Below, one piece after another: positions 1 to 64,000 of a stretch of DNA of 64,000 nt. Below the pieces are notes generated by a model. The model was not told the DNA's origin. It saw only the letters and a list, made by a program, of their open reading frames with translations, and ran no database searches. Where the stretch lies: assembly GCA_010093995.1 (NCBI GenBank), contig ML992529.1, forward strand, positions 1 to 64,000. Direction: 5' to 3'. Position numbers and translations under genes: made by a program. This DNA is from Elsinoe ampelina (Eukaryota). The stretch's first letter is position 1. Every line of letters begins with the position of its first letter.

Positions 1-3000
1 ATTTAGTCGCCTATAGAAGCTAGTAATAGCTATAAACTTCTAGACTGTCTTTTATACTCTTATAAGAATTCCTAGTACTATCTCCTTAGCCTTAGACCTA
101 TTAAGCTTCTTAGCTTTAACTAGGTTATCTATCTTATCTTTCCTTTACTTCTATACTTATCTAACTACTAGTGCCTTACTAATAGTTACTAGAGCTACAA
201 TAGTAGAGCTAAAGTTCTTAGGTCTAGCCTAGCTTCTATCTTTAGTGTTTAAGCTAAGAATAGTAAGTCTACTAACTAGAGCACTTTTATAATAATTATT
301 ACTAAGCTTATACTAGAACATAGACAGCTAGAATTACCTAAGACTCTTAACTAGTTAGCTCCTAATATTATTATTCCTATTATCTTATCTTACTAAGTCT
401 ATAATATTTATTAGAAATATTCTCTATATAGTTAATAGCTTATATTCTAGTCTATCTCCCTTAGCTAGGTCCTAGGTTCTCTAGATAAACCTTAGTAGCT
501 TTACCTAAATATTAGTATAGTTCCTAATAGTACTAACTTTATACTTAGAATAGAATAGTTATTAGTCTTTACTTCTACTAACCTCTAGTCTTTTAATAAA
601 CTCTAGAACTACATTTCCTACTATAGACTACTTAGTAGTCTTTATGTAGAGTCTAATAAGTATACTAGTTGCTCTACTAGCTCTTAGTAGCTTAGTATCT
701 CTCTCCTATATCTTCTAATTAGTAAAGTGCCTAAAGTAACTATCTCTCTTAGCTTATACTTATCTTTAAGCTTCTACTTATTCCTTTATTATTAGGTATA
801 CTCTATGCTTTATCCTATAACTATAGGATATTCTAGCTCTAGAGAGCTAATATAGCTAAAGAATAGAATTCTAACTAGAGAGAGTAATAGCCTATAGAAC
901 TTAAAGCTACTTAAATTCTATAAGATACTAGATCTAACCTGTTATTTCTAGCTAGGGATTAACCTTATATCTGTTTCCTAGACCTTAAATAACCTTCTAG
1001 TTGTTCCTTCTACTTAGAGTATCCTAATAGATTTCTAATTATATATTAACTCTATCCTTAGGTCTTTCCTATACTACTTCTATATCTAGGACTTAAACCT
1101 AGAAAGACTTTTACTAGGCTTTATTCTAAAAGAACTTCTAGCTCTAGATACTACTAATCTATATCTTATTACTTCTTAGTTTTACTCTCTAAGCCTTACT
1201 CTTTCCCCTAGACTTATTACTCTTTTAGTTATACTTCTAGCTATAGTACTATTATATAACCTTAATATACTAGGTAATATAGCTATACTATCTTTCCTAA
1301 GTATCCCTATAGATATACTTAAAGCTTAGACCTTAAATAGGTAGTTCTAGAATTACTTCTACTATAGGGTAGAGGTACTAGATATTTAATTTCTTCCTTG
1401 CTAAATTTAGTATATTTCCTACTATACTAATAATATTCTACTATCTATTCTTTGCTAGGGAAAAGTAATACTTCTTTAGGTAGGAAGTAACTTAATTAAG
1501 AATTATAGTAAATCTATAATCTATATAGATAATTACTTTAAACTACTAGAAGTACTTAAAGAGTATTTCTTCTACTAGGTAAGAATAGAAAACCTAGAGA
1601 GAGACCTATAGTTCTTACTAGAATACTATAGTAGATAGAAGTAAACTAAATAGATCTAGGAAGTATTAAATAGTAGTACCTTTTATATAAAGCTTAGTAT
1701 TCTATATAGAGACTTAACCTTTATTAAAGAACCTCTAAAGCCCTAGACTACTCTTCTAAGGTTCTAAGGAATAGTAGATCTTAGATGTTTAGTAGACTAA
1801 GACGTAGAGGACTTAAAGTTTAAGCCCTAAGGTTAGTAGGCCTAGACAAATTAGAAAGCTACTATACTAAATATAAATTAAAAAAATATAGTTTAAGTTT
1901 TTTAGGGTTAGAGTAGGCTTTATACTTAACTAAGAATATAAGGATAGCTTAACTAGAGAAATTCTTATCGATTAGATAGAATTAGGCAAAATAGTAACTA
2001 TACTTATATTAGCTAATAATAAGGCCCCTATATATAGTAGGCTTAAGTAGATTAGAATACTCTAGTAGTATAGGGTAACTACTCTAATAGTTAGAAATGC
2101 TTAGCTTAAAATTCTAAGGTAAGTAGGTCTAGGCAAATTAGAAGAATATTATATTAGGTATAAATTATAGAAAGACTCTAAGATTGCTCTAACTCTTAGC
2201 TAAGCTTAGAATTCTAACCTAAGGTTAGAAGGTTTAGGTATATTAGAAAGATACTATATTACTTATATATTATAGAAACACTAGGAAATTTAATAGACTA
2301 TTAGTAAAGATTTCTAATTTAGAACTAGAGTTATAATATTTAGAAGCTTACTAGCCTATTATAACATCTAGAACACTTAGACTAAGCTATCTAAACCCTA
2401 GGAAAGCTACTTACTTACTCTATACTTAAGAAAACTAAGAGAGCTAGCTACTCTATTCTAATATTCCCTAAAGTTACTCTAAGGCTATATATAATCCTAA
2501 CTAGCTCTAAGCCTTATTAAAGATAAGCCTAGACTTAGTAAGATCTAGGAGCTTGTCCTACTCTACTAGGTAGCCTCTATCTCTTAGGGTAGTTACCTAA
2601 GCCTTAATATTATCTAGGAGAGCTAGAAAATTATCTAGGACATGCTAGTTCTTAGAAGAGTTAGAGTCGTTAGGAAGCTTAATTAGGAAGCCCCTAGTAG
2701 CCTTATTATCGGTTAGGAGACCTCTAAGGCGTCTTATAGGTCTAGAAGCCTTAGGATATATAGAGGTAAGGTTAGTAGAGAGGCGTCTAGAAGCTCTTTA
2801 GTAGTTTAGGACTTATATTAGTTAGAATCGATTAGGAAACTTAGAAACATATACTAGATAAGCTATAGCTATAGTAATTATTCTAGAAGCTATAGTTAGT
2901 ATAGGAGCCCCTTAGAAGTATAGTGCTATTAGGAGTAGTTATAGTAATATAGGAGTTATATTTACTATTTCCCTAAGTATAGGAAGTATACTTCTAACTA

Positions 3001-5600
3001 GCTAGGTAAATAGTATACCTAGAAGCGCTATAGATAAGTAGAGAAACTAGGTAGTTAGTGTTAGATCTAGAAAGGTTTATAGTTGTTCTAGGAGTTCTTA
3101 GGTTAATAGGCTAGTTAAGCTAGAACTTAGAACTAGTCCTAGTAAAGACCTAGAGATTAGCGTTAACTAGGGGTTTAACCTAGGCGTCTAGGGAATTATA
3201 TTAGGCTATATTAAGTCTCTAGAGGTTAGCCTAGACCTACTAGGTAAAGAGAAGAGTTATAGGAACCTAGGTATAGCTTAGAAGTGTTAGTAAAATTAGA
3301 ATATATATTAGAGGCTTAGAGCTTACTTAGGGTATTTAGGTTAGTAACTCTATCTCTAGTAGTAGCTAGGAAGGTTATAGGAGTTCTAGTATATAAGGCC
3401 CTAGGAGCTATAATAGTTACTAGGAGCGCTAGGCTTAGGAAGTTGTTTAGGAAGGAAGGTAAAATTATAAGAGAGCTAGGAGATTAAAACTAGAAGTTAT
3501 AGTTAGTTAAGGTTCTTAGAAAGGCTTATATTTACTAAAGGTCCTTATTTAAGGCCTCTTAGTAGAGTTAAAGTAGCAGAGATAAGATCTATAGGCTAAA
3601 TAGAGCTATATATATTACTATAAAGGCTACTAGGCTTATTAGTATAAAGAGCTACTAGGTATATCTATCTCTTACTAGTAAAAAGCTTTATAAAAGCTAT
3701 AAAGGCTATAAAGGCTATAGGTAAGCTATAAAGCTAATTCTTTCTAGAGCTAATTAGAAGCTATTTAATCTCTATAGTAGTATCTCTAGCTACTTTAACT
3801 CTCTTAAAGGGACTAGATAAGGATCTAGCTATAATAGAGTAAACTTACTATAATAAAGATAATAAGAAGAGAAAGGAAAAAAGCTAGAAGAAATAAAAGA
3901 GATATATAAGATCTATAAGTTATACTAGGTAGCTAGGTATATAAAACAAAGAGTAATATAATAATAAAGAAGTATATAAATATAACATATAAAAGACCTA
4001 AGTTATAATCCCTAGAGACTTAGGATATACTAACTAACGCCTAGCTACTAGAGGCTAAACTAGAAATACTTACTAATAATTCCTTATAAAAGTTTATTAT
4101 TACTTAGAGTAATATAATAATAAGTAATATAATAGAAATAATAGCCTAAACCTTTAGGTAGATAGACTTATAATTATAACTCTATACTCTAGTAGAACTA
4201 TAAGCCCTTAAGAATTCTATTTTAACTTCTATCGATATAATCTACTTACTAGATCTAAATCTAGTATTATAAAAAGCTATTAAATATTAATCTAGCTATC
4301 CTAAGAACTTTAGACTCTAGAAAATAATAAGGGAATACTAAGAGGTAGTTAGAAAAGATAAAGACAAGAGAGAAGATAGGTATTTCTACTAAAGATCCTA
4401 GTTGTCTATTATTTAATTAAGAATTATAAGCTCTAGGATTTCTCTAATAACTCTAGGAGCGATATTTATATATATAATCTAAGTACTATAGAGTTATCTA
4501 TAATTCTTAAATCTTCTATTTACTAGGAAATTTATTTTACTTTAATATATATTTTATATCTGTCTACTAGTCTACCTAGGCCTTTCTAAATTTATAGAGA
4601 TATTCTAGAGTTTCTAACTATTAGAAGTAAAGCTACTAAGACTTCTACTTTATATTTTCTTAAGAACTTTAAAAGATTTTTAGGATAGTCCTAGTATACT
4701 ATAACCTAGATTCTAGAAGTAATACTCGATAATTCTAGATAATACTAAGTATTATAGAGGACCTAGATAATATAAATAATCTTTAAAAAATTTAAAGGGA
4801 AAAAATCTTAGGAAGTTCTAAAGAATAGAAGTTAGGAATCCTATTAGAATCTAGGAAAATACTCTAACTCTACTCTAGTAAAACTATTAGAATATACTCT
4901 TTCTTCTAAGATATATAGTGTCTAGTACTATAATAAATTTATTTAGTATTCTATACTAATCTACTAACTAAGTATCTAAATAACTCTCTACTAGAATAAG
5001 TCTTTAAGAAACTACTATTAGTAGAGGTTTATAGTAAAGAGAAATATAAGATTAATAATATAATTAATATATATAAGCTATATAGAAAACTAATTACTTA
5101 TATAAGCTAAAAGAGCTATTTTAAGAATCTTACTTAGTAGCTAATTAATAATCTTAAAGAAGCTACTAATATACTATATAACTATCTAGACTATTATATA
5201 AATAAGCTAAGGCTAAAATAGATTAATAAATAATATATAATAGTATTTAAGAGTAAATATACTTAAGAGAGAGAGTAGTAATATAAGATAGATATAAACT
5301 AGATTTAGTTAGAATCTAGTTTAGATTAGTTATATAATCTTAGTATTATAGCTTAGGCTTCTAGCTACTCTACTCTTAATATTATATATACTTTATATAT
5401 TAGCTTTCTTCTTCTTCTTCTAAGTCTTAATATCTTAATAAATAAATATAATTAACTTCTTATCTTACTAGTTGTAATTAGTATATACTATTTTACTTAT
5501 AGAGATATAAACTATATAAAATTTAAGTAGTAAATTTCCCTTACTTAAAAATTTTCCTTGTCTAAAAATTCTAATATATCTCTATAGAATTTATACTAAG
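1..5600. repeat. AT-rich, RIP-degenerated repeat or mobile DNA block; family not identified; continues off the left edge
   Basis: Very AT-rich, saturated with TpA (TAG/CTA/TAA), almost no CpA/TpG or CpG, and no ORF in the track. Composition grades back to normal between about 5900 and 6280. Confidence 0.85.
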
Positions 5601-5659
5601 CCCGGAGTAGAACCTAAAATAGCTATACGATAGAGAATGTTACTTATAGTATATAAATC

Positions 5660-7857
5660 TTATTTCTTATTAAGCTATTCTATAATAGTAAGTAGCTTCT
5701 AAATACTACTTAGAAAAATAAAGCTATACTTATAATATAGTAGAATACTAATATAGAGAGTATTTACTCTAAAATATCTCTTAACGTATATCTCCTTTAA
5801 CCTATGCTACTTAGTAGTAGTTAGTTCTAGTCGTAGTAGTCTTTATATAATATATACTTACTTCTATCTTAAGTCGTTCTTAACTATATTACTATAATAA
5901 CGCTTTCTACTATCTTATAGAGGGGCATAGCTAGCATATAGGGTTTCTATAGCGCTATAGTTCTAGTCTATACGGATTTATATAGGCGTAGGTATACCTA
6001 GCTAGGCTAGAAGTACGCAGGAGGCGTTAAAGCTTAACAAGTGTAGTTACGGGTCAAATATAGTCGATATAGAGGACAAATCCAGCACAAGTCTAGTGTA
6101 AGTTTCCTTCGCTCTAGCTATTACGCTATAATGTCTTATAGCATCCCGTTCGGAGGCCTCGTCTTCGGATCGAGGTAATGCTACTACATCGAGGCTCTTA
6201 GCAATATTATCCGGAACCTCTTAACAAGCCGTAGCCGCAGTTATAAGCACCTAATACAAAACGCCAGCAAGGTGGTCCTAGACAGACTTGATCGATGTCC
6301 GCTTTACAGCGTTCTGAATCATGACCGGAGTTGCTATGTAGTCCTTTCGGAGTGAGCAAGGCGTGCTTCCTCGCAGAGGCGTACGATGCACGACAGCGTG
6401 GCAGAGTAAGAGCGAGGTGAGCCTCACAGACTCATATATCCAGCCGGCTTCCGAGTCAGTGTCCATCTGCAGCGGTGCCATTTCGTGAACCTGTTCGCAA
6501 ATGGCAAGTAATGCTCCATTGGCGCGACGCCCGGAGACTTGGTGAGAGTGGCTGTCCTTTCGGTTGCGGAGCTCGTCCTCTCTAAGCCTTGAGACTATCT
6601 CGATGAGCTCATGCATTAATCGTACCAGTTCGAAAGTGTCCAGTCTGCAATGGGGCGTGCGCGCGATACTTCGCAAATTGTCCGGCATGCATGCCAATGG
6701 ACCAATGGGTGCAGGCGACTTGAAAGTGTCGTGTGTGGCAAGGTAGCGGTTTATCCAGGCCACGTACATCGAGTCTGGTAGTTCGTGTCGAAGTATGCTG
6801 GTTTCCAGGTTTGCAAGTGTCATATTCATTGCCACGACACCACTGCCAGGTAAAGCGTCCAGGCCTCCCCGCTCTCTTACCATTGTTGCCAGGACCTTCT
6901 GGTGACCTTCGACAGGTCCAGGATACGGGTAACATAATTGACCGATCAGTAAGCACATGATGGCTATCATGTTGCTGACGCTATTCTTGTCCTCGCTTGC
7001 GTCTATCTGATCATTGATGATTCGCGGTAATATGTTCATCAGTTCAAGAGTATGACGTGAGTCTGTATGTGGCGAAAGCCCCTCTCGACCCGGGGGCTGA
7101 TCCATTAGGTCCGTGAAGGGGGCCGATAGCGCTAGGCTAGCGAGGAATGTGTGAGAAGCATTGGCCGTGAAGGGCACGAATTGATCGAATGCCGCTTGTG
7201 AACCAAAGTAAGTGACACCTGCCTGATTGTCAGAGAGATTGATGTGACCTCAGAGGCCTGCTTACAATTGATCTTGAGCAGATCAAGATTGGAGAATACG
7301 GGCAAATCGTGCTCGTCGGTATTTGTCAAGTGCCCGTAACGTCGTGTTCGATGATAGGCGACTGCGAATGCGACCCGCCGTTCGAGATGCCCAATTCCAG
7401 GAACAAGAGCAGGGTCGGAGCTGTCCTGATCCGCGGTGGAAAGACGATCTTGTGGGCGGCTATTGAGCCGGTCCGCGATATACACGTACTTGTCATGGTT
7501 CTCTCGATGTGTAATCATTGGATTCAATATAGAGCGGCCCTGGATCGGTGTAGGTCCAGCTGAATGTGTGATGACCGGGGACGCTGTCGCCGCGGTTGTT
7601 GCGGAGTCACCAGATGCAGCATCGTCGCCGGGAGCCATAGCATTCGGCGCGGACGGCGGTGACCTGGTCGGCTTGTTGTGTGCTTCTGCTCCGTTTGCCT
7701 TGATCCTGCGGTCCTTGGTTTTCGGATCTCCTTTTGCTTTGTCCAGATAGTCACGCATCACAGCCTTGCGGACAGAGCTCAGTGTTTCCCTCTTCTTAAA
7801 GTCGGCCGGGCAATTGCCCGTGACGAAGGCGAATGTCTTCCGAGGCGCGGTGGCCAT
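5660..7857 (-). pseudogene. Uncharacterised fungal transcription-factor-like gene with a RIP-damaged 3' third; first premature stop at 6278-6280
   Basis: ATG at 7857 (MATAPRKTFAFVTGNCPADFKK...VRKAVMRDYL), one intron at about 7219-7265, then the frame of ORF 6278-7177. The same frame continues past TAG as (W)DHLAGVLY(W)VL... to a TAA at 5660-5662, with stops explainable as TGG>TAG or CAA/CAG>TAA/TAG. Confidence 0.7.
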
Positions 7858-44971: not shown

Positions 44972-47900
44972 CTATACTCTATCCAACGATTGCGCAAGGC
45001 ACATGGCATGGTATCTCCCCCTCCTGGCCAGGAGCTCTTCATGCTTCCCCACCTCGGCGATGCGCCCAGCTTCAATCACAAAGATCACATCGGCATGTCG
45101 AATTGTGCTCAAGCGATGAGCTACTGCGATCATAGTCCTTGCCATCGCAGCTTCGTCAAGCGCTTGCTGTACGATCCTTTCACTTTGTGTATCGAGCGCG
45201 GAAGTGGCCTCATCCAGTAACAGCAGCTTCGGGTTTCTGATCAACGCTCTCGCAACCGCGATGCGCTGTCGCTGTCCTCCGGAGAACTGCAGTCCTCTTG
45301 ATCCGCATGGCGTGTTCAGACCTTCGGGAAGAGAAGAGACAAAGTCCAAGGCATTCGCCTGTCGACACGCCTCTTGAATTTGGTCCAGGTCGGGCTCTTC
45401 GTCCAAGCCAAGCGTGATGTTCTCCTTTACCGAGCCAAGAAAGAGCGGAGGCTCCTGCTGCACAAGTGACATACACTTGCGGTAAAGATGCGGGGCGAGA
45501 CTTCTGATATCCCGGTCGTTGACAATAATACGACCCGACATTGGGTCATAGAAGCGCTCGAGAAGGGACACTATCGTGCTCTTGCCACAGCCAGATGGTC
45601 CAACGAATGCGGCATATTTACCAGGGGCGATCTGCATGGATATGTCCTTGAGCACCTTGACAGACCCTCGTTGTTTGTATGCAAAGTCGACACGCTCGAG
45701 CTGGACAGACATGTCATCCCCGGCAGGGCCCTTTCCATCATGCTCTTCGGTTGTGTTGATTTTCGGCTTGACTGTTCGCAGCCAGAGCAGATAGTTGGCA
45801 CTACCTGTGGCCTTCGTTATTGACGTAGTATAGGCGAAGAACTGTGCCGCAGCCTGACCGCCGAAGATGACGGAAAGGAAGATGATAAAGAATGTGGAGA
45901 CAGTGTACTCCCCACTGGCGATCCACCTGGATCCAAGCCAGAAACCAAGGCCCATAACCAGGAAGTCGGCTGACTGAGACAGAGCGTATGGAACCAGTGT
46001 CGGGATCAGGTTGCGAACAACCTTTGCGATGATACCATCCAGGACACTACTGTATCTCTCCAGCACAACACTCTCAAGCGTCAAAGAGCTGATCGTCTTA
46101 ATGGCGCTCACACTCTCAGCAGCCAAGCTGGCACTCTCCGAGAATTGCCTCTCAACAGAGATTTCTAGCTTTTGGTCGAGTCGAATCCTGATGTAGCCAC
46201 TGCCAACAATGATGGTCATTCCAGCAGCCACCAGGATTAGGCCGAGCTTCCATCCAAAGGCAATCCCTACCAGGCTGCTTGCCATAATGTTGACGATAAC
46301 ATTGAGCATCAATCCAAGATTGGCCGACATCAGCTCTTGGATAGCCGACGGTACGGAAGACAGCCTCGCCGTTAGTGCACCAGAATTGTTTTCTGGTAGA
46401 TCGAAAAAGTCCTGGTCAAAATTGACAACTCGCTCAATCATTTCCCTGCGATATCGATGCGTCAGAGCTTGGCCGATTGTGTTGGTTCCAATTCCGACGA
46501 GGAAGTAGCCGACGAGATTACCAAGAGCAAGGACCAGGAACATTAGCGAATAGAAGTTGGCTTGCTTCTGTGCCTCACTGCCTTGAAGGTTAAAGACAGC
46601 GATGAGGCGGGAGAAGAGAATGGCTTGCGCTGGGTACGTCCCGCCGACAGCTATCATGGCGACCGCTAGGACGCTATACCAGCGGTACAGGTCGGAGTGC
46701 TCTTTGAGCATGATAAATATGCATCGAGCGAGCGAGTAGCCCATGGTTTCGGTCTGAAGTTTCTGGTCTGCCGCAGCCTCAATGTCCAAAGCCTTTCCGC
46801 CTTCTTTGGTCGACTTTGAACGATACAGAGATGGCCGGCGTTCCACGTTGACCTGGGAAGACGAAGCAGAGTCAGCCTGCATGCTCTCTTCCTGCTTGAC
46901 CGTAACTGTCCCTAGATCTTGAGCGCGGACCATGGCTGCATACAGACCATCAAGATCCACAAGTTGCTGGTGTGTGCCTTCTTCGTTCACCTTTCCGTCC
47001 GCCATGACCACGATGTGGTCGGCTGCCATGACAGTCGAGAGTCGATGTGCGATGATGAGTGTCGTCTTGCCTCTGGAAACTCGGTCTATGGCGGCCTGCA
47101 CAAGCTGTTCTGCTCGAGGATCAAGCGCGCTTGTGGCCTCATCGCATAGCAGAACCTGTGGCTCCGAGATGATGCTGCGGGCGATGGACAGTCTTTGCCG
47201 CTGACCACCGCTTAGCATACTCGCGCGCTCTCCAAGCTGAGTCTGGTAGCCAAGCGGCATCTGTTGGACAAAGGTGTCTGCATCGGCAGCCTTGCATGCT
47301 TGTTGCACCAATTCGAGTTGCCGTTCTGCGGGCAGCAAGCGTTGCTCTGCCGTGAGCCCTTTCGTCACATTCTCGAAGACTGTACCCTGGAATAGCGTGG
47401 GCTCTTGTTGTACAATCCGAGTGGCAGTACGTAGCCATTGAGTATTCAGCTCAGAGATATCCTCGCCGTCCAAAAGAATCTGGCCAGATGTTGGATCGTA
47501 CCATCGCTCAATTAATCCTACCACGGTAGATTTGCCACAGCCGCTCGGGCCAACAAGAGCTGTAGTTTTACCTGCCGGAAGCGACAAGGTAAGACCTTGC
47601 AGTACTGGAGCATCAGGTCTTGCGGGATAGGCGAAGTGGACGTCTCGAAATTCAACATGCCCAGCGCAGGCCGCGGGAATTGCACCAGAAATTGCGAGTG
47701 GATCCAGCTTGGTCTCCTTGTCGATGACGCTGAACAGTTCTGCTGTCGCGGAAGACGCATTCGTGATAGCCATGACTGAAGGTAGGAACGACATGGCCGA
47801 TGTGGCGCCCAGGGTAACGCTTAGGACTACGGTAAAGACAGTGCCCACGGCCTTGATCTCTCCACTCTGAAACATCCGGAAGCCTTGCCAAAAAGCAAGA

Positions 47901-49034
47901 GCTATCCCTGCCATGACGACAAAAGTCTGACATGAGAACAGGATGCCGTATAAAATGGACTTCTTCGATCCCTCCTTGTGTGCTGCTTGGAGCAGATTGT
48001 CGTACCAGCCGATCACCTTCTTCTGTGCTCCGAACGCCTGAATTGTCTTGATCGAGCCAAGTGCATCCTGCGCTATGGTCCCTGCTCGCGAATAGATCTT
48101 GACCTGCCAAGCAGTTCCGTCAGCAAGATAGTGCTAGCAATGGCGTGGTAGGACTCACAATTCGTGCCTCGATCGGGGCGTCGGCTGCCAGTGGCCCCCC
48201 TACCACCAGGATGCTGGCAGGAATCACGCTCATGATGATGATTAGTGCAAGCTTCCATTGCACAGCGAGAGCGACGATGAAAGAAGAGAACAACAATGAT
48301 ATACTTGTAACGCAGCTGTACAACTTCTCTGCGATACCTTGATTGATACGATTGCCGTCTGCCACAGATCAGTGCTTTGCTCTTGGTCTCTTGCTTTGCA
48401 CTGACATACTTGTCGTCACCTGCGAAGCCACCGATCCCTGGTTTTGTAAATCAAAGTAGGATATCTCTTGCCGGAGCAGGCTATTCAGAAAAGCCTTCCT
48501 GACGTTGTTGGTTGTTCTGGCTGCTGCTATGCAAATGCACAGTGTCGCAACATATCCAATCAGGAAGCGGCCAACGAATAAATAGACGAAGTATAGCACC
48601 AGAGAGTTGATATTACTCTGGAACTGTTCTGGGGATCTCTGACCAGATGCAAAGTCGTTGAAGATGCTCGTCGAGGAGCCAAAGACGATTGTCATCAAAG
48701 GCAGAGTGGCTCCAGCGATGATGGCTCCGGTGAAGGCGATGAGGTACAGTGAGATATCGATACGATCGGCGTACCGGAATACTCGCTTGAAACCGACCGA
48801 GTTCAGCAAACATACTGTGTACGGCAGTTCGTGCGGAATGTGACCTACGAAGTAGTCCTTCAAGCCTCCACTATTTGCCTTGTCTTTGATACTTTCTTGG
48901 TCTCTCTCAGATCCGATCTCGTCCAGCTTCTCATTATCGTCTTTGGTACCGGTGCTTTGGTGATGGTGTTGCCTGTGCTGATCTGTGGTGGATCCAGTCA
49001 GGATATGGCCCTCTGGTCTGCTCGCAACAGCCAT
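44972..49034 (-). CDS. Full-length ABCB (MDR/P-glycoprotein-type) transporter, multi-exon
   Basis: TMD-NBD-TMD-NBD layout. Walker A GPSGCGKST twice, signatures LSGGQRQR and FSGGQRQR, DEATSALD twice. The 5' exons lie in ORFs 48369-49034 and 48120-48365. Confidence 0.93.
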
Positions 49035-49143
49035 CGTGGTTTGGATTTCGAAGTGGACAATAAGATGTAGACATTGTTACGAGCCGTGATCCACTCATAT
49101 ATGATAATAGCAATGTAGTGTTGATGTCACTTCCATCGTTGGC

Positions 49144-59924: not shown

Positions 59925-61401
59925 AGATTACAATTGTTGTTTGCATAGCCTAGGGTAGGGTAGCATTGGATATCGGAACATTGCTGACCAATCAATTTTG
60001 TAAAATGCCTGGAGCATTTTCTGCTCTGAGCCAATGATTGTGCTGAGCGAGCGTGTCGTACAAAGAACAAGGCTCGTTACAAGAAAAGATGACTGTAGCC
60101 AGCGAGGATACTCGATGCTTCTTCAAGCTTGCTCCTGCTCGGTACTGCACCTATGCCGAAAATACCATGCTCGAAATAGAGGAAAGTGTATTGAATCGAT
60201 CCAATCAGAGAACCAAGACGGTGTCTACTGTAAAGGGAGATGTAGGTATTTTTGGACGCCGTACGCGTAGACAAGGGATCTCTGGCGAATACGATTGCCT
60301 TTCATAGCCCTGCCGCGGTGTTGGTTCCTCCGTTTGTGTCTCCAGCTGAACGGGAGCTTTCTTTCAAGGGAAAAATCAGGTCAGGATCGAGGTCAGGGCT
60401 GAAAACACACGTGCTCCGGCACCAACACCCTTCCCTGCACCGAGTCACGTTTACTGTATGTTGACGAGCAGTGTTGTTGCCTGCCACTATCGTCTAGCTA
60501 GAGACGGATCACAATTGCTCCGTCTGGTAGTACTATCGCGAGCAAGCAATGGCGATCCGATAATTGTTGTCACCCTCCTAGTCATCAGCGAATGCAACAA
60601 GGACATGGTCAAATGTACTTACTGCACCCATCAGAACGGCACCGGCATCAAGCATTACCCATGTTAGTCAAAACCGTGCGCTCCATGTCAGACACCAATT
60701 CCAATCAACGGGCCAGACGCAGGTACAGTACTCGTGTACCTTTTGGCTAACCAATCCAATCAGCTGGATCAGGCGACCGCTGCTGAGCCCATCATGCCCA
60801 TGACAGGCAGAATGACAGATGCGGCTGCATGATGATGGGCCAACTTATTATCTGACTCCATCAAAGGGACAAACACTACTACGACCTCACTTTGTCCAGT
60901 GGCAGTGCTTCCTTCAATTACACTTTACTCATCTCCATCAGCTCACGGATGCCTCGGACCATATCAGCCTTATTGCCTGACCTCGTGTCCCCAATCGAGA
61001 CATGTTCTTGCTGTTTTCCCTCTATAGGTCGGTTGTCTGCGGCCTCCCGAGCATGAGTCCCCTAGGCTACCAATGACTCTTGACACCGATTTTAGCACCG
61101 CCTGTGGTCCTTCACACGCTCGTTCTGCGTCAGAGGGTCAGCTAATCTTATTCATCCTTCGCATTGTCGTTGTTCTAGAAGGTTGTGTCTGCCTTGTCAC
61201 CGTCTGAGAGACAAGTGTGATTGGTGCCTGAGCAAGGCATATAAGGTGGCGTATATCTCTCTCATTCTTCTCGTTCTTCATCATCACCATCAAACACATC
61301 TTCCGTATAGCATCACTACCGCTACCGTCTACCACTACCAGTCAGACCAACCAACCATATCCCCAACAATACACCACCACACAAACATCACAACATCAAC
61401 A

Positions 61402-61650
61402 ATGGGTCGTGGAGGATACAACACCCCCTTGGTCGTCTTCGGCAGAGGAGGCTACAACGCCCCCGCCCGAGCAGGCGAAGACGAGGGTCGAGGCGGGTAC
61501 AACGCCCCGGTCAACGCTGGACGAGGAGGCTACAACAAAGCCGGCGGCGAAGACGAGGGTCGAGGCGGGTACAACGGTCCCATTAACTTTGGGCGAGGAG
61601 GATACAACAAGGATGGCGGCGAAGACGAGGGTCGCGGTGGATACAACTAG
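61402..61650 (+). CDS. 82-aa protein of seven GRGGYN repeats; function unknown
   Basis: ATG in ACAATG context after a CA-rich leader and a TATAA box near 61240. Seven exact hexapeptide cores differ only at synonymous sites, and the stop follows the last core directly. Confidence 0.85.
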   Translation: MGRGGYNTPLVVFGRGGYNAPARAGEDEGRGGYNAPVNAGRGGYNKAGGEDEGRGGYNGPINFGRGGYNKDGGEDEGRGGYN

Positions 61651-61974
61651 ATCTGCATTTCATTTCCCTTCTCCTGGGACAGATTGGGCATAGCATTGCG
61701 AGGATCGGAAGGGATAGATCTGTACAACACCTCTCTTGCGACATATTTACACGACCACGGCATAGACACTGGACCATCGACACGACCATGTCCTTCATCA
61801 TTCGAGCATAGCAGGACCACGGACAGGAGGGAAGAATAGAGGAGCATCACCCCGGCGCCAGACAAGATGGGATACATTTCACTCGTTCACACACACACAC
61901 ATCTCCTTTTCGTCATACTTTCTCTCCGTCATCTCTACTAGACAGTTTCACCACTGAGAATGTTGATCCATTCC

Positions 61975-63861
61975 CTATTTGCCTACACAAAACCTCTCAA
62001 ACACAACCCCCAAGACCTCTTCCACATCTCCCTGTTCCCCCTTACCAGTGATCCGTGCCAGACACCCAGCCGCATTACGCAAGTGCTCAGCAGCGAGGAC
62101 AAAGTCTAGTTCCCCGTCACTCTCTCCCTGTATGTGTTCCATATCTTGCCTCATCCGTGACTCATTGCAGTGACCAGACCCGGACACCGCATGCCGTCCA
62201 ATGTCGAGAAACAGGCCAAGGTGCTCGTTACATTCTTCCAGCAAGAGGCGTTGGCGCTCGGTCGCCCCTAGAGATTCTTGCCAGATCGAGGTGTCAGCGT
62301 CCGAGGTATCCGCCGTGTCTGAGGCGGTCACCGCGCGGGTCATGGCGTGAAAAGTGGTGACGAGGCCGGAGAGGAAGGAAGGAATGCCAGCATCTGGAGA
62401 AGCAGTGGTTGGCTGTAGAGTAGTGTTGGGTCGGCATGATAGCATGTGAATGTCTTCTGACCGCAGACCAGGTATGGCTGCTTGAATGCCGCCCGTAATC
62501 TCGCTGTCTGGGAGGTCGGGCGGCTTCTGATCGATCTTGTTGACGACGACCAGAATGTTGTGTCCTTGGCCAACGAGTGTGCGTGCGGTGTCAAGAACCT
62601 CCTCGTCGAGCTTGAGGGCGGGACTGGAGCTGTCGGGCTCGAATGATAGGGCGACAATGACTAGGTCGCTCTCTGCTGCTCTCGCTTTTGCCCTTCGTAT
62701 GCCCTCTTGCTCCACAATCCCAATGTCCTGGCTTTTGTGTCGGCCGTTGTCCTCGGTAGGCAGGTTCAGAGCCCGTCTCAACCCTGCTGTGTCACCGAAT
62801 CGACAGAGGTAGCCACCGATATCAACCGATACCTCAACCACATCTCTTGTCGTTCCAGCCTCGTGGCTGACAATGGCTGCCTCCCGACCGACGATCCTGT
62901 TCAGCAGACTGCTCTTGCCAGCGTTTGGTGCTCCAAGGAGACTGATGCTAATACCGTTGCGGAGAAGTTCGCCTCTGACTGCGTTCCGGGTGTGAGCTTC
63001 AAGAGTCTTCTGTAACTCAAGGACCTGCTGGGCAACATTCCCAATGAGCTCCGCCGGCGACTCATCAAAATGCTGATCTTCCGAAAAGTCAATGAGTGCT
63101 TCAAGCTCGCCACGAGCAGACAACAAGAGCTGACGCCATGACTCGTAGCGTCGGGTAAGATTGCTGACAGTCCCTCGGACAGACAAACGTCTTTGTTGCT
63201 CTGTCACAGCTGACAACGAGTCTCCCAGAGCTTCGACCTGTGTCAAGTCCATGCGATCATTGAAGAAAGCTCGGCGTGAGAATTCTCCTGCTTCCGCGTA
63301 CCGAATGCTGCCAGTCTTGCCCGAGCACTTTGGGATGGCAGACAGCACAGCCTTGACGATGGCTGGACCTCCGTGTACATGAAGCTCGAGGACATCTTCT
63401 CCAGTGACGCTGTGGGGACCAGGGAAGAAGAGGATCAGAGCATTCGAGTCGAGCATAGTCTGCTGGGAGGGCGCCACGTGTGGCTCGTAGAGCGTGCGGA
63501 TAGCAGCATAGCGTGGTTTGGGCACCGTCTTCCCGGGACTCAATCCATGGTAGACGAGTCTTGCTCCAGGTCCGGAGATTCGGATGACAGCTATACCAGC
63601 TCTTCCAGGGGCAGTGGAAAGGGCATAGATCGTTGAACCTAATCCAAAGGCTCCATCACCGTGTAAGTCATCGGCTTGATTGTATGTCGGAGCTTCTATA
63701 TTCCCGCTTGCTCTTGTGCCTGCGGTCTCATGTGGATGATGTAATCGTGTGGATGAAATGGACCAAGGACCCCAGATGGGCCCCTCATGGGGGATTCGAA
63801 GGCGGTGCGCGGATCTTCGTGCTGACCTCAGATGTCGAAGGAGACATCTCGAAGCCAGCAT
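61975..63861 (-). CDS. MSS1: Mitochondrial tRNA modification GTPase (MnmE/TrmE)
   Basis: TIYALSTAPGRAGIAVIRISG, TGEDVLELHVHGG, GAPNAGKSSL, GTTRD, DTAGLR, NKID and a C-terminal FCVGK. Presequence-like N-terminus. Confidence 0.95.
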   Translation of the reverse strand: MLASRCLLRHLRSARRSAHRLRIPHEGPIWGPWSISSTRLHHPHETAGTRASGNIEAPTYNQADDLHGDGAFGLGSTIYALSTAPGRAGIAVIRISGPGARLVYHGLSPGKTVPKPRYAAIRTLYEPHVAPSQQTMLDSNALILFFPGPHSVTGEDVLELHVHGGPAIVKAVLSAIPKCSGKTGSIRYAEAGEFSRRAFFNDRMDLTQVEALGDSLSAVTEQQRRLSVRGTVSNLTRRYESWRQLLLSARGELEALIDFSEDQHFDESPAELIGNVAQQVLELQKTLEAHTRNAVRGELLRNGISISLLGAPNAGKSSLLNRIVGREAAIVSHEAGTTRDVVEVSVDIGGYLCRFGDTAGLRRALNLPTEDNGRHKSQDIGIVEQEGIRRAKARAAESDLVIVALSFEPDSSSPALKLDEEVLDTARTLVGQGHNILVVVNKIDQKPPDLPDSEITGGIQAAIPGLRSEDIHMLSCRPNTTLQPTTASPDAGIPSFLSGLVTTFHAMTRAVTASDTADTSDADTSIWQESLGATERQRLLLEECNEHLGLFLDIGRHAVSGSGHCNESRMRQDMEHIQGESDGELDFVLAAEHLRNAAGCLARITGKGEQGDVEEVLGVVFERFCVGK

Positions 63862-64000
63862 GCAGTCGATTGCACAGTACGTCGAAATGTCAGATTGTGA
63901 AGGGGATGATTGTTGATGGAGAAGAATTATTGTACTTGATCTTCACCGCAGTGCCAAGGCCGAGGCAAGGTTGCTATCGAACATCTTGCGACGGGCTCGG

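Follow-up and report, generated by a model that had tools for sequence, protein, structure and literature searches.

Positions 61402-61650 of the 64,000-nucleotide window analysed here (the whole stretch of Elsinoe ampelina DNA) raise the question of whether a short and highly repetitive open reading frame is a gene and, if it is, whether its product is cut into small peptides or works as a whole. The translation (P0001) contains seven exact copies of the hexapeptide GRGGYN, and a six-frame scan of the whole 64 kb turned up no GRGGYN-like word apart from these seven cores. A preliminary description, made from the sequence letters, had given a translation to which ours is identical residue for residue, and had reported that acidic and hydrophobic spacers alternate, that the Gly and Arg codons of the cores vary and that the protein starts and ends exactly on a core. 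The alternation is as described, the codon spellings are correct when checked against the DNA, and the initial Met is indeed followed directly by core 1, with core 7 forming the C-terminus. The features of the locus are collected in Table 1.

Table 1. Features of the repeat gene and of its downstream neighbour, in window coordinates
Feature	Position	Strand	Basis or remark
TATA-like box TATAAG, followed by a pyrimidine-rich leader	61240..61245	+	read from sequence
5' untranslated leader, start approximate, without upstream ATG	61290..61401	+	starts of RNA-type contigs
Coding sequence of the 82-residue GRGGYN-repeat protein P0001, stop included	61402..61650	+	ATG start, TAG stop, intron-less
GRGGYN core 1	61405..61422	+	motif scan
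GRGGYN core 2	61441..61458	+	motif scan
Internal tandem duplication, 72-nt unit, 2.4 copies	61474..61647	+	Tandem Repeats Finder, 85% matches, score 243
GRGGYN core 3	61486..61503	+	DNA identical to core 5
GRGGYN core 4	61519..61536	+	codons GGA CGA GGA GGC
GRGGYN core 5	61558..61575	+	DNA identical to core 3
GRGGYN core 6	61591..61608	+	motif scan
GRGGYN core 7	61630..61647	+	C-terminus of P0001
3' untranslated region of uncertain extent, possibly reaching into the 3' end of the convergent TrmE gene	61651..61981	+	contigs
TrmE/MSS1, mitochondrial tRNA-modification GTPase, convergent neighbour	61975..63942	-	Pfam TrmE_N, MnmE_helical, MMR_HSR1

Transcription of the reading frame is shown by contigs from public sequencing runs. 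Those of four runs, which belong to three studies, together span 61290-61981 collinearly and show no joint within the gene. They start at 61290 (run X3), 61293 (X7) and 61311 (X4), all continuing collinearly into the reading frame, which in X4 is spanned by contigs at 61311-61503, 61475-61575 and 61547-61981; contigs starting at 61547 reach 61756 in X7, 61870 in X5 and 61981 in X4. The kinds of the sequencing runs (12 in all) were guessed, and regions without contig cover were not counted as evidence. X3 contains spliced RNA, since one of its contigs omits 60574-60621, a segment whose ends on the minus strand are of the splice type (GTAAGT...CTGAT...AG). The sole difference in three runs is a G to C change at 61509, which is synonymous (Pro codon 36). 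The word depth in X3 is 2559-7267 for the contigs of the leader and reading frame against 68 for a neighbouring contig, a hint that the transcript is abundant, although contig depth cannot rank genes.

The reading frame begins at the first ATG of the transcript, and the last 150 nucleotides before this ATG are 62% C+T. Of 13 distinct upstream regions from relatives, 12 have a TATA[AT]A box 167-377 nucleotides ahead of the start codon, and none of the 13 has an ATG within the final 120 nucleotides. Positions 61402-61650 are a real, transcribed, intron-less gene. The gene call of the preliminary description is thus upheld, RNA-type contigs covering the reading frame and the core being conserved in homologues.

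These homologues were found in several ways. A word-indexed search returned 27 proteins of 57-126 residues at E<=0.01, including hypothetical proteins from Glarea lozoyensis, Cadophora malorum, Venustampulla echinocandica and Exophiala mesophila. Twenty of the 27 were aligned (alignment A1), and the resulting profile, run against 1.84 billion representatives, matched 128 proteins at E<=0.001, including 36 at E<=1e-10; the matches P0029, P0109 and P0145, which are without any core, were rejected as spurious. The named relatives come from Leotiomycetes, Eurotiomycetes, Sordariomycetes and Agaricomycetes, all fungal, and carry in GenBank and UniProt only such labels as "hypothetical protein" or "glycine-rich protein"; most metagenomic relatives are unlabelled. 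The ESM Atlas gave a single Ascomycota cluster for P0001 (score 0.81, which we take as a lead only) and no usable match for the long relative P0157.

A scan of metagenome contigs yielded 26 loci of the family, in 25 of which the reading frame ends in GRGGYN directly followed by the stop codon, the 26th being broken by the end of its contig. Close pairs of relatives have low dN/dS ratios, of 0.09 for L008 and L013 (17 synonymous and 7 non-synonymous differences) and 0.06 for L001 and L009 (16 and 4, respectively), which indicates purifying selection; the ratio of the window gene against L001 is 0.33. The 68 GRGGYN cores found in 21 distinct genes have 43 different 18-nucleotide spellings; together with the 128 profile matches, this shows that the repetition is not due to chance. 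That the locus is a transcribed repeat, or a non-coding RNA in which a reading frame arose by chance, as the shortness and repetitiveness of the frame might suggest, is hardly credible in the face of these matches, the low dN/dS in close pairs, a frame and stop position that are kept in every metagenome locus except the truncated one, and a start codon that coincides with the first ATG of the transcript.

A recent tandem duplication of a two-core unit inside the P0001 gene nevertheless accounts for some of the seven-fold repetition. The 72-nucleotide unit consists of an acidic spacer, a core, an xPxN-hydrophobic spacer and a second core; its two full copies differ at 12 of 72 bases and are identical over the first 30. 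The variable codons of the invariant cores had been taken to point to selection on the peptide and not to DNA slippage. Across species this stands, as dN/dS and the core spellings testify, but in the P0001 gene the recent duplication contributes to the pattern, and the argument against slippage therefore holds for the family and only partly for this gene.

Proteins with at least two cores were sorted by architecture, nine near-identical cluster mates being dropped, and fell into three classes. What they have in common is 2-15 copies of GR[G/S]GYN set between fast-evolving spacers. The largest class comprises 116 small leaderless proteins (<=200 residues) with 376 cores, either GRGGYN or GRSGYN, in two to seven copies, P0001 being the only member with seven. 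Their cores are followed by a single Lys or Arg in 168 cases, by x-Pro in 102, by the stop codon in 80 and by a Lys/Arg pair in only 4 of the 376. The C-terminus falls exactly on a core in 80 of the 116 members, P0001 among them. Leaderless members with GRSGYN include proteins of Anthostomella pinea, a Xylariaceae species, Sordaria macrospora (SMAC_04439) and Neurospora crassa (NCU04148), the last of which runs on past its final core.

The second class is made up of about 15 proteins, containing 62 cores, that begin with a signal-peptide-like stretch, as called by a hydrophobicity rule of our own and by inspection, in place of a dedicated predictor. In this class a Lys/Arg pair follows 17 of the 62 cores and Asp or Glu precedes 38. 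Units such as ...EETDGRSGYN-RR... occur in Lentinus tigrinus, Heliocybe sulcata and Colletotrichum aenigma, and other members are from two Hymenoscyphus species, Pyrenula, Microthyrium, Collariella and Aspergillus homomorphus. The third class consists of 16 proteins of more than 200 residues, one of them from a Hypoxylon species, and includes a conserved Ser/Pro-rich subfamily of about 300 residues with 8-9 cores (P0037, P0045, P0154-P0157). Pfam searches of 14 long profile matches gave only unrelated or gene-fusion domains (e.g. MBOAT_2 in P0039). That the hexapeptide is kept letter for letter in three architectures and throughout the fungal classes sampled points to a recognition or assembly element, for which we could find no existing name.

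One way to account for this conservation is that P0001 is a leaderless multi-core precursor, from which enzymes encoded at other loci would produce, by cleavage after each Asn or by other trimming, short peptides ending in -GRGGYN. These peptides would possibly be modified or exported non-classically, and P0001 would be the cytosolic counterpart of the secreted, Kex2-type relatives. Such a precursor is suggested by a core that stays invariant while spacers and copy number vary, by the many small members that finish on a core, by the Lys/Arg pairs after cores of the signal-peptide-like relatives and by alignment A1, in which the best-conserved stretch, an acidic run and the terminal core, mirrors the units of the relatives bearing signal peptides. 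The contig depth in X3, within the limit given above, hints at an abundance like that of precursor genes. P0001 itself, however, has no signal peptide that we could find (its most hydrophobic N-terminal stretch of 12 residues averages 0.39 on the Kyte-Doolittle scale, by our own rule) and no Lys/Arg pair before or after any of its seven cores, both of which the preliminary description had noted as missing. Cuts after Pro or after single basic residues would yield non-uniform products; a prolyl-oligopeptidase-type cut after each Pro of P0001 was rejected on this ground, by reasoning from the sequence. The motif is also found within long Ser/Pro-rich proteins lacking any cleavage logic, and NCU04148 does not finish on a core. 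Taking these points with the genomic context described below, we regard a leaderless precursor as possible but doubtful.

The only neighbour common across loci is the TrmE/MSS1 gene, which lies downstream in convergent orientation in 18 of 27 sources. Where it is missing, the contig ends about 0.7 kb or less downstream (L007, L015, L016, L017 and L025), has 1.2 kb of downstream sequence with no TrmE match by the criteria used (L012) or carries 10 kb of other genes (L023 and the near-identical L021 and L022). We take TrmE as a marker of conserved microsynteny and make no claim that it is a functional partner; this microsynteny argues that the repeat gene is an ordinary chromosomal gene inherited vertically, and speaks against a biosynthetic cluster. 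TrmE from the window shares 96% identity with its Elsinoe ampelina counterpart and 86% with that of E. batatas, which places the window in an Elsinoe-like dothideomycete.

Among the 30 large open reading frames of the window that were scanned with Pfam are an amino-acid permease, two Zn2Cys6-type factors, an ABC transporter, an MFS transporter, GH3 enzymes, Hus1, Mak16, a DEAH helicase, Fes1 and an actin-like protein. None of the 30 is a DUF3328, tyrosinase, peptidase or methyltransferase gene, which bears out the preliminary description on the first three; the window extends only 2.3 kb 3' of the repeat gene, so that its downstream side is partly covered. Domains on the 20 reading frames scanned in nine related loci include FAD-binding, P450 with haem peroxidase, GARS/AIRS, Sec1, MBOAT, WSC and transcription-factor types, and neither DUF3328 (UstYa) nor tyrosinase is among them; in these loci as in the window, the domains belong to housekeeping or unrelated kinds. 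Two apparent links were rejected: the amino-acid permease gene, which in the window is found 1.5 kb upstream of the repeat gene, is not beside it in other loci, and an ABC transporter gene is directly downstream in L023, 13 kb off in the window (39% identity) and nowhere else.

Across the 27 sources, no tailoring or processing gene is conserved beside the repeat gene, be it for a peptidase, DUF3328, tyrosinase, methyltransferase or prolyl oligopeptidase. The comparison of neighbourhoods that had been proposed as a check thus returned a common neighbour, TrmE, but no conserved co-occurring enzyme gene. The suggestion of a cytosolic precursor served by enzymes encoded elsewhere gains from the existence of signal-peptide-like relatives with Lys/Arg pairs and loses from the lack of any such gene travelling with the repeat. 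A more specific version of it, which we consider unlikely, is that the acidic run and GR[G/S]GYN with a free C-terminal Asn would constitute a peptide "word" common to Ascomycota and Basidiomycota. It would be released by Kex2 and Kex1 in the secreted relatives, the leaderless arrays being a new class of cytosolic multi-core precursors whose cleavage after Asn would fall to an enzyme from another locus, with export possibly by a non-classical route. The products would be signalling or bioactive peptides, in the present case of a plant-pathogenic Elsinoe-like fungus.

The composition of P0001 is as unusual as its repetition. The protein has a mass of 8.3 kDa, a pI of 6.2 and a GRAVY of -1.2; 27 of its 82 residues (33%) are Gly, its ten basic residues (8 Arg and 2 Lys) balance ten acidic ones (6 Glu and 4 Asp), and Cys, His, Gln, Ser and Trp are absent. 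AlphaFold2, run on the 20 sequences of alignment A1, gave a mean pLDDT of 53, a pTM of 0.11 and no secondary structure, and P0001 is predicted to be intrinsically disordered. A complex prediction with four copies (score 0.00, mark 0.32) carries no weight for or against self-association. N-myristoylation of the Gly that follows the initial Met was considered and found unlikely, because that Gly is followed by Arg, a context in which the modification is disfavoured.

These properties could by themselves be the function, P0001 being a generic protectant or condensate protein, either hydrophilin-like or of the RGG/Tyr sticker-and-spacer kind, that acts through bulk properties and has no specific partner. 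Hydrophilins have more than about 6% Gly and a high hydrophilicity, and the composition of P0001 lies within these criteria; RGG together with Tyr is the sticker grammar of FUS-type proteins. The predicted disorder is consistent with such a role, as is the hint of abundance from X3, with the same restriction that depth cannot rank genes. Hydrophilins are also induced by water deficit or stress, of which the promoters give a weak sign: the 13 upstream regions contain 33 STRE-like words (AGGGG/CCCCT), compared with 15.9 for mononucleotide shuffles, but C+T-rich leaders inflate this roughly two-fold excess. Proteins of this sort, however, rarely hold six consecutive residues invariant across Ascomycota and Basidiomycota, and we find it improbable that bulk properties are all that P0001 provides.

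The reading that we favour, and to which we give about an even chance, is that P0001 is an intact, disordered, multivalent-motif protein working like the GRGGAGN repeats of Par32, and not a RiPP precursor. It would act whole, in the cytosol or nucleus, as a multivalent array in which each GRGGYN unit (Arg and Tyr spaced by Gly-Gly, with Asn as a cap) would serve as a short linear motif, recognized either by a conserved partner or by the other GRGGYN copies, and in which the acidic GEDE spacers would keep the array soluble. We infer that P0001 is not cut. This is favoured because P0001 is without every mark of a secretory or Kex2-type precursor, because no processing gene travels with the repeat gene and because long Ser/Pro-rich proteins reuse the hexapeptide without visible cleavage logic; such use in long proteins looks like the behaviour of a linear motif. 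Of the two possibilities that had originally been put forward, a processed cytosolic precursor and a minimal RGG/Tyr low-complexity protein, it is the second that fits better, given the predicted disorder and the presence of the motif in Ser/Pro-rich proteins of about 300 residues.

Several observations speak against an intact protein. The approximately 15 signal-peptide-like relatives have a Kex2-type layout, from which the unit could be released as an acidic peptide ending in ...GYN, and a binding motif of the cytosol poorly explains the same hexapeptide in secreted proteins. The predominance of small leaderless members that end on a core is like that of pheromone-type polyprotein precursors, the yeast MF-alpha-1 precursor also ending on its last core.

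The preliminary description could not assign P0001 to a described family, and neither can we: Pfam gave no family for it at E<=10, and a string search of the literature with motif words found no paper describing a fungal GRGGYN/GRSGYN family. Among the matches listed for "RSGYN" and "RGGYN", none concerned a fungal family by its title. A match to GRGGYN in bioRxiv 2020.07.30.229062 comes from a synthetic peptide ending in ...GRGGY-NH2. NCU04148 is named once, as a down-regulated gene (PMC5905970), in the sole paper found for the tags NCU04148, SMAC_04439 and GLAREA_01001. The motif is absent from the supplements of two surveys of Kex2-processed repeat proteins (KEPs), PMC7329392 (three files) and PMC6339444 (two files); PMC9769878 could still list the secreted form. 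The family is wide, a breadth that the preliminary description did not anticipate any more than it did the resemblance to the GRGGAGN motif of Amu1/Par32. It is apparently undescribed, in that we could not find a description of it, and the membership of NCU04148 makes it directly testable in the model fungus N. crassa. If the proteins are cut, they would represent a new class of leaderless peptide precursors; if they remain whole, they would be a second family built on a Gly-rich linear motif, beside Par32.

Among known systems, the KEPs (alpha-factor-type precursors and the dikaritin UstA) resemble P0001 in having tandem invariant cores with Tyr, variable spacers and copy number, acidic flanks and often a terminal core. 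The repeated Tyr-containing core of dikaritin-type precursors is present seven times in P0001, and among the approximately 15 relatives with a signal-peptide-like start and KR or RR after cores, some answer to the KEP definition. P0001 differs from KEPs and UstA in that it has neither the secretory signal nor the at least three repeats separated by dibasic sites that characterize KEPs, and in that no DUF3328/UstYa or tyrosinase gene is found nearby.

RGG-box proteins, of which RNA binding and/or Arg methylation are further traits, usually have an aromatic residue after RGG, and P0001 is like them in its clustered RGG and aromatic residues, with seven RGG-Y units over its 82 residues. Hydrophilins and LEA-like proteins, which in fungi include small stress proteins such as the CON-6-type repeat proteins, are also small, hydrophilic, Gly-rich, repetitive and predicted to be disordered, and P0001 may, like them, be abundant; it nevertheless has no similarity to any Pfam family of this kind.

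The closest parallel is the Amu1/Par32 family, of which P0001 could be a true, miniaturised member regulating ammonium or amino-acid transport under TORC1-Npr1. In both families the proteins, which have been found in fungi alone, are predicted to be disordered and have in common a Gly-rich motif in multiple copies that starts with GRGG and ends with Asn, and the window has an amino-acid permease gene upstream of the repeat gene. That neighbour is not conserved in other loci, however, and Pfam, silent on P0001, gave no match to the Amu1/Par32 family for P0037, P0045 and P0129, three of the long relatives, at E<=1, the model of that family being, we presume, DUF3602 (PF12223). A regular-expression search with the published pattern, G-R-G-G-X-[AG]-N-X(30,110)-G-R-G-G-X-[AG]-N (PMC4501750, legend to Fig 4), matched none of the 154 family proteins, P0001 included, and GRGG.[AG]N on its own is likewise absent from all 154. 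GRGGYN, the motif of P0001, has an aromatic residue and is shorter by one residue than GRGG-x-[AG]-N, its seven copies lie 5-9 residues apart in 82 residues, against 3-6 copies spaced by 30-110 in the approximately 295 residues of Par32, and some relatives of P0001, unlike Amu1/Par32, look secreted. Membership is therefore very improbable, and the resemblance appears to be a likeness in possible mode of action.

According to passages of PMC4501750 and PMC6249832, Amu1/Par32 of S. cerevisiae and other fungi belongs to a disordered, fungi-only family with 3-6 GRGGAGN motifs, mutation of the four motif arginines abolishes its function, and the authors propose a partner for the motif, the identity of which is not established. 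The motifs are also needed for the nuclear accumulation of Par32 (PMC6249832). A second parallel is the Kap104-dependent PY-NLS of yeast Hrp1, which, as given in a review table (PMC8140498), contains GRGGYN literally. The hexapeptide occurs there once, in a basic stretch ending in PY, whereas P0001 has no PY and repeats it seven times as its only conserved element. The presence of GRGGYN in the Hrp1 signal and the part played by the Par32 motifs in nuclear accumulation make an importin-type reader a candidate for the protein that would recognize the GRGGYN array.

Transcription between the permease gene and the gene for the microprotein with seven GRGGYN cores is indicated on the minus strand, as an assembled contig of the public sequencing run X3 skips 48 nt there (within the examined region 60000-60800) and the skipped segment has minus-strand ends of GTAAGT...CTGAT...AG, pointing to a spliced transcript. 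The spliced sequence contains no ORF of at least 30 aa, and this transcript may therefore be a divergent non-coding RNA. Within the microprotein gene itself, contigs of three other runs (X4, X5 and X7) read C for G at a single position. The change is synonymous (Pro codon 36) and therefore looks like strain-level variation.

Features of the window and of a related metagenome locus
Sequence	Positions	Strand	Feature
Window	44972-49076		Closest match to the L023 ABC transporter
Window	60574-60621	minus	Segment skipped in the X3 contig
Window	61509		G>C in the microprotein gene
L023	10810-15042		Full-size ABC transporter

In the metagenome locus L023, the transporter gene lies directly downstream of the GR[G/S]GYN-repeat family gene. 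The window's most similar sequence to this transporter (39% identity) is found 13 kb upstream of the microprotein gene; the transporter was not seen in the other loci. Only the closely related loci L013 and L026 carry, some 4.6-8 kb downstream from the family gene, ORFs of the fatty-acid oxygenase type, which have P450 and animal haem peroxidase domains.

Several relatives from outside the window (P0094, P0135, P0107, P0118, P0089 and others, with examples in Lentinus tigrinus, Heliocybe sulcata and Colletotrichum aenigma) have a signal-peptide-like start followed by ...DGR[G/S]GYN-KR/RR units. Judged from sequence, they are a Kex2-type repeat-protein (KEP) family, which is absent from the supplementary files examined for two KEP surveys (PMC7329392, 3 files; PMC6339444, 2 files). 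A secreted-looking variant from Aspergillus homomorphus (P0064) has Cys-rich spacers, with repeated CVQCDEVTPQE-GRGGYN, and ends C-terminally on a core.

Other relatives, also from outside the window, are longer. In P0032 (from a Hypoxylon species), P0059 and P0100, which are 345-505 aa long, up to 15 GRGGYNQP repeats come after a common N-terminal region that has no annotation (around the sequence ...IPPVxIPxEVLxMPF...FPWLP...YNPRYLY...). P0037, P0045 and P0154-P0157 form a conserved Ser/Pro-rich family of about 300 aa without a Pfam match, in which SP-rich stretches separate 8-9 [A/M]GRGGYN motifs. These proteins lack the GRGGAGN motif of the disordered fungal protein Par32, but resemble it in overall design.
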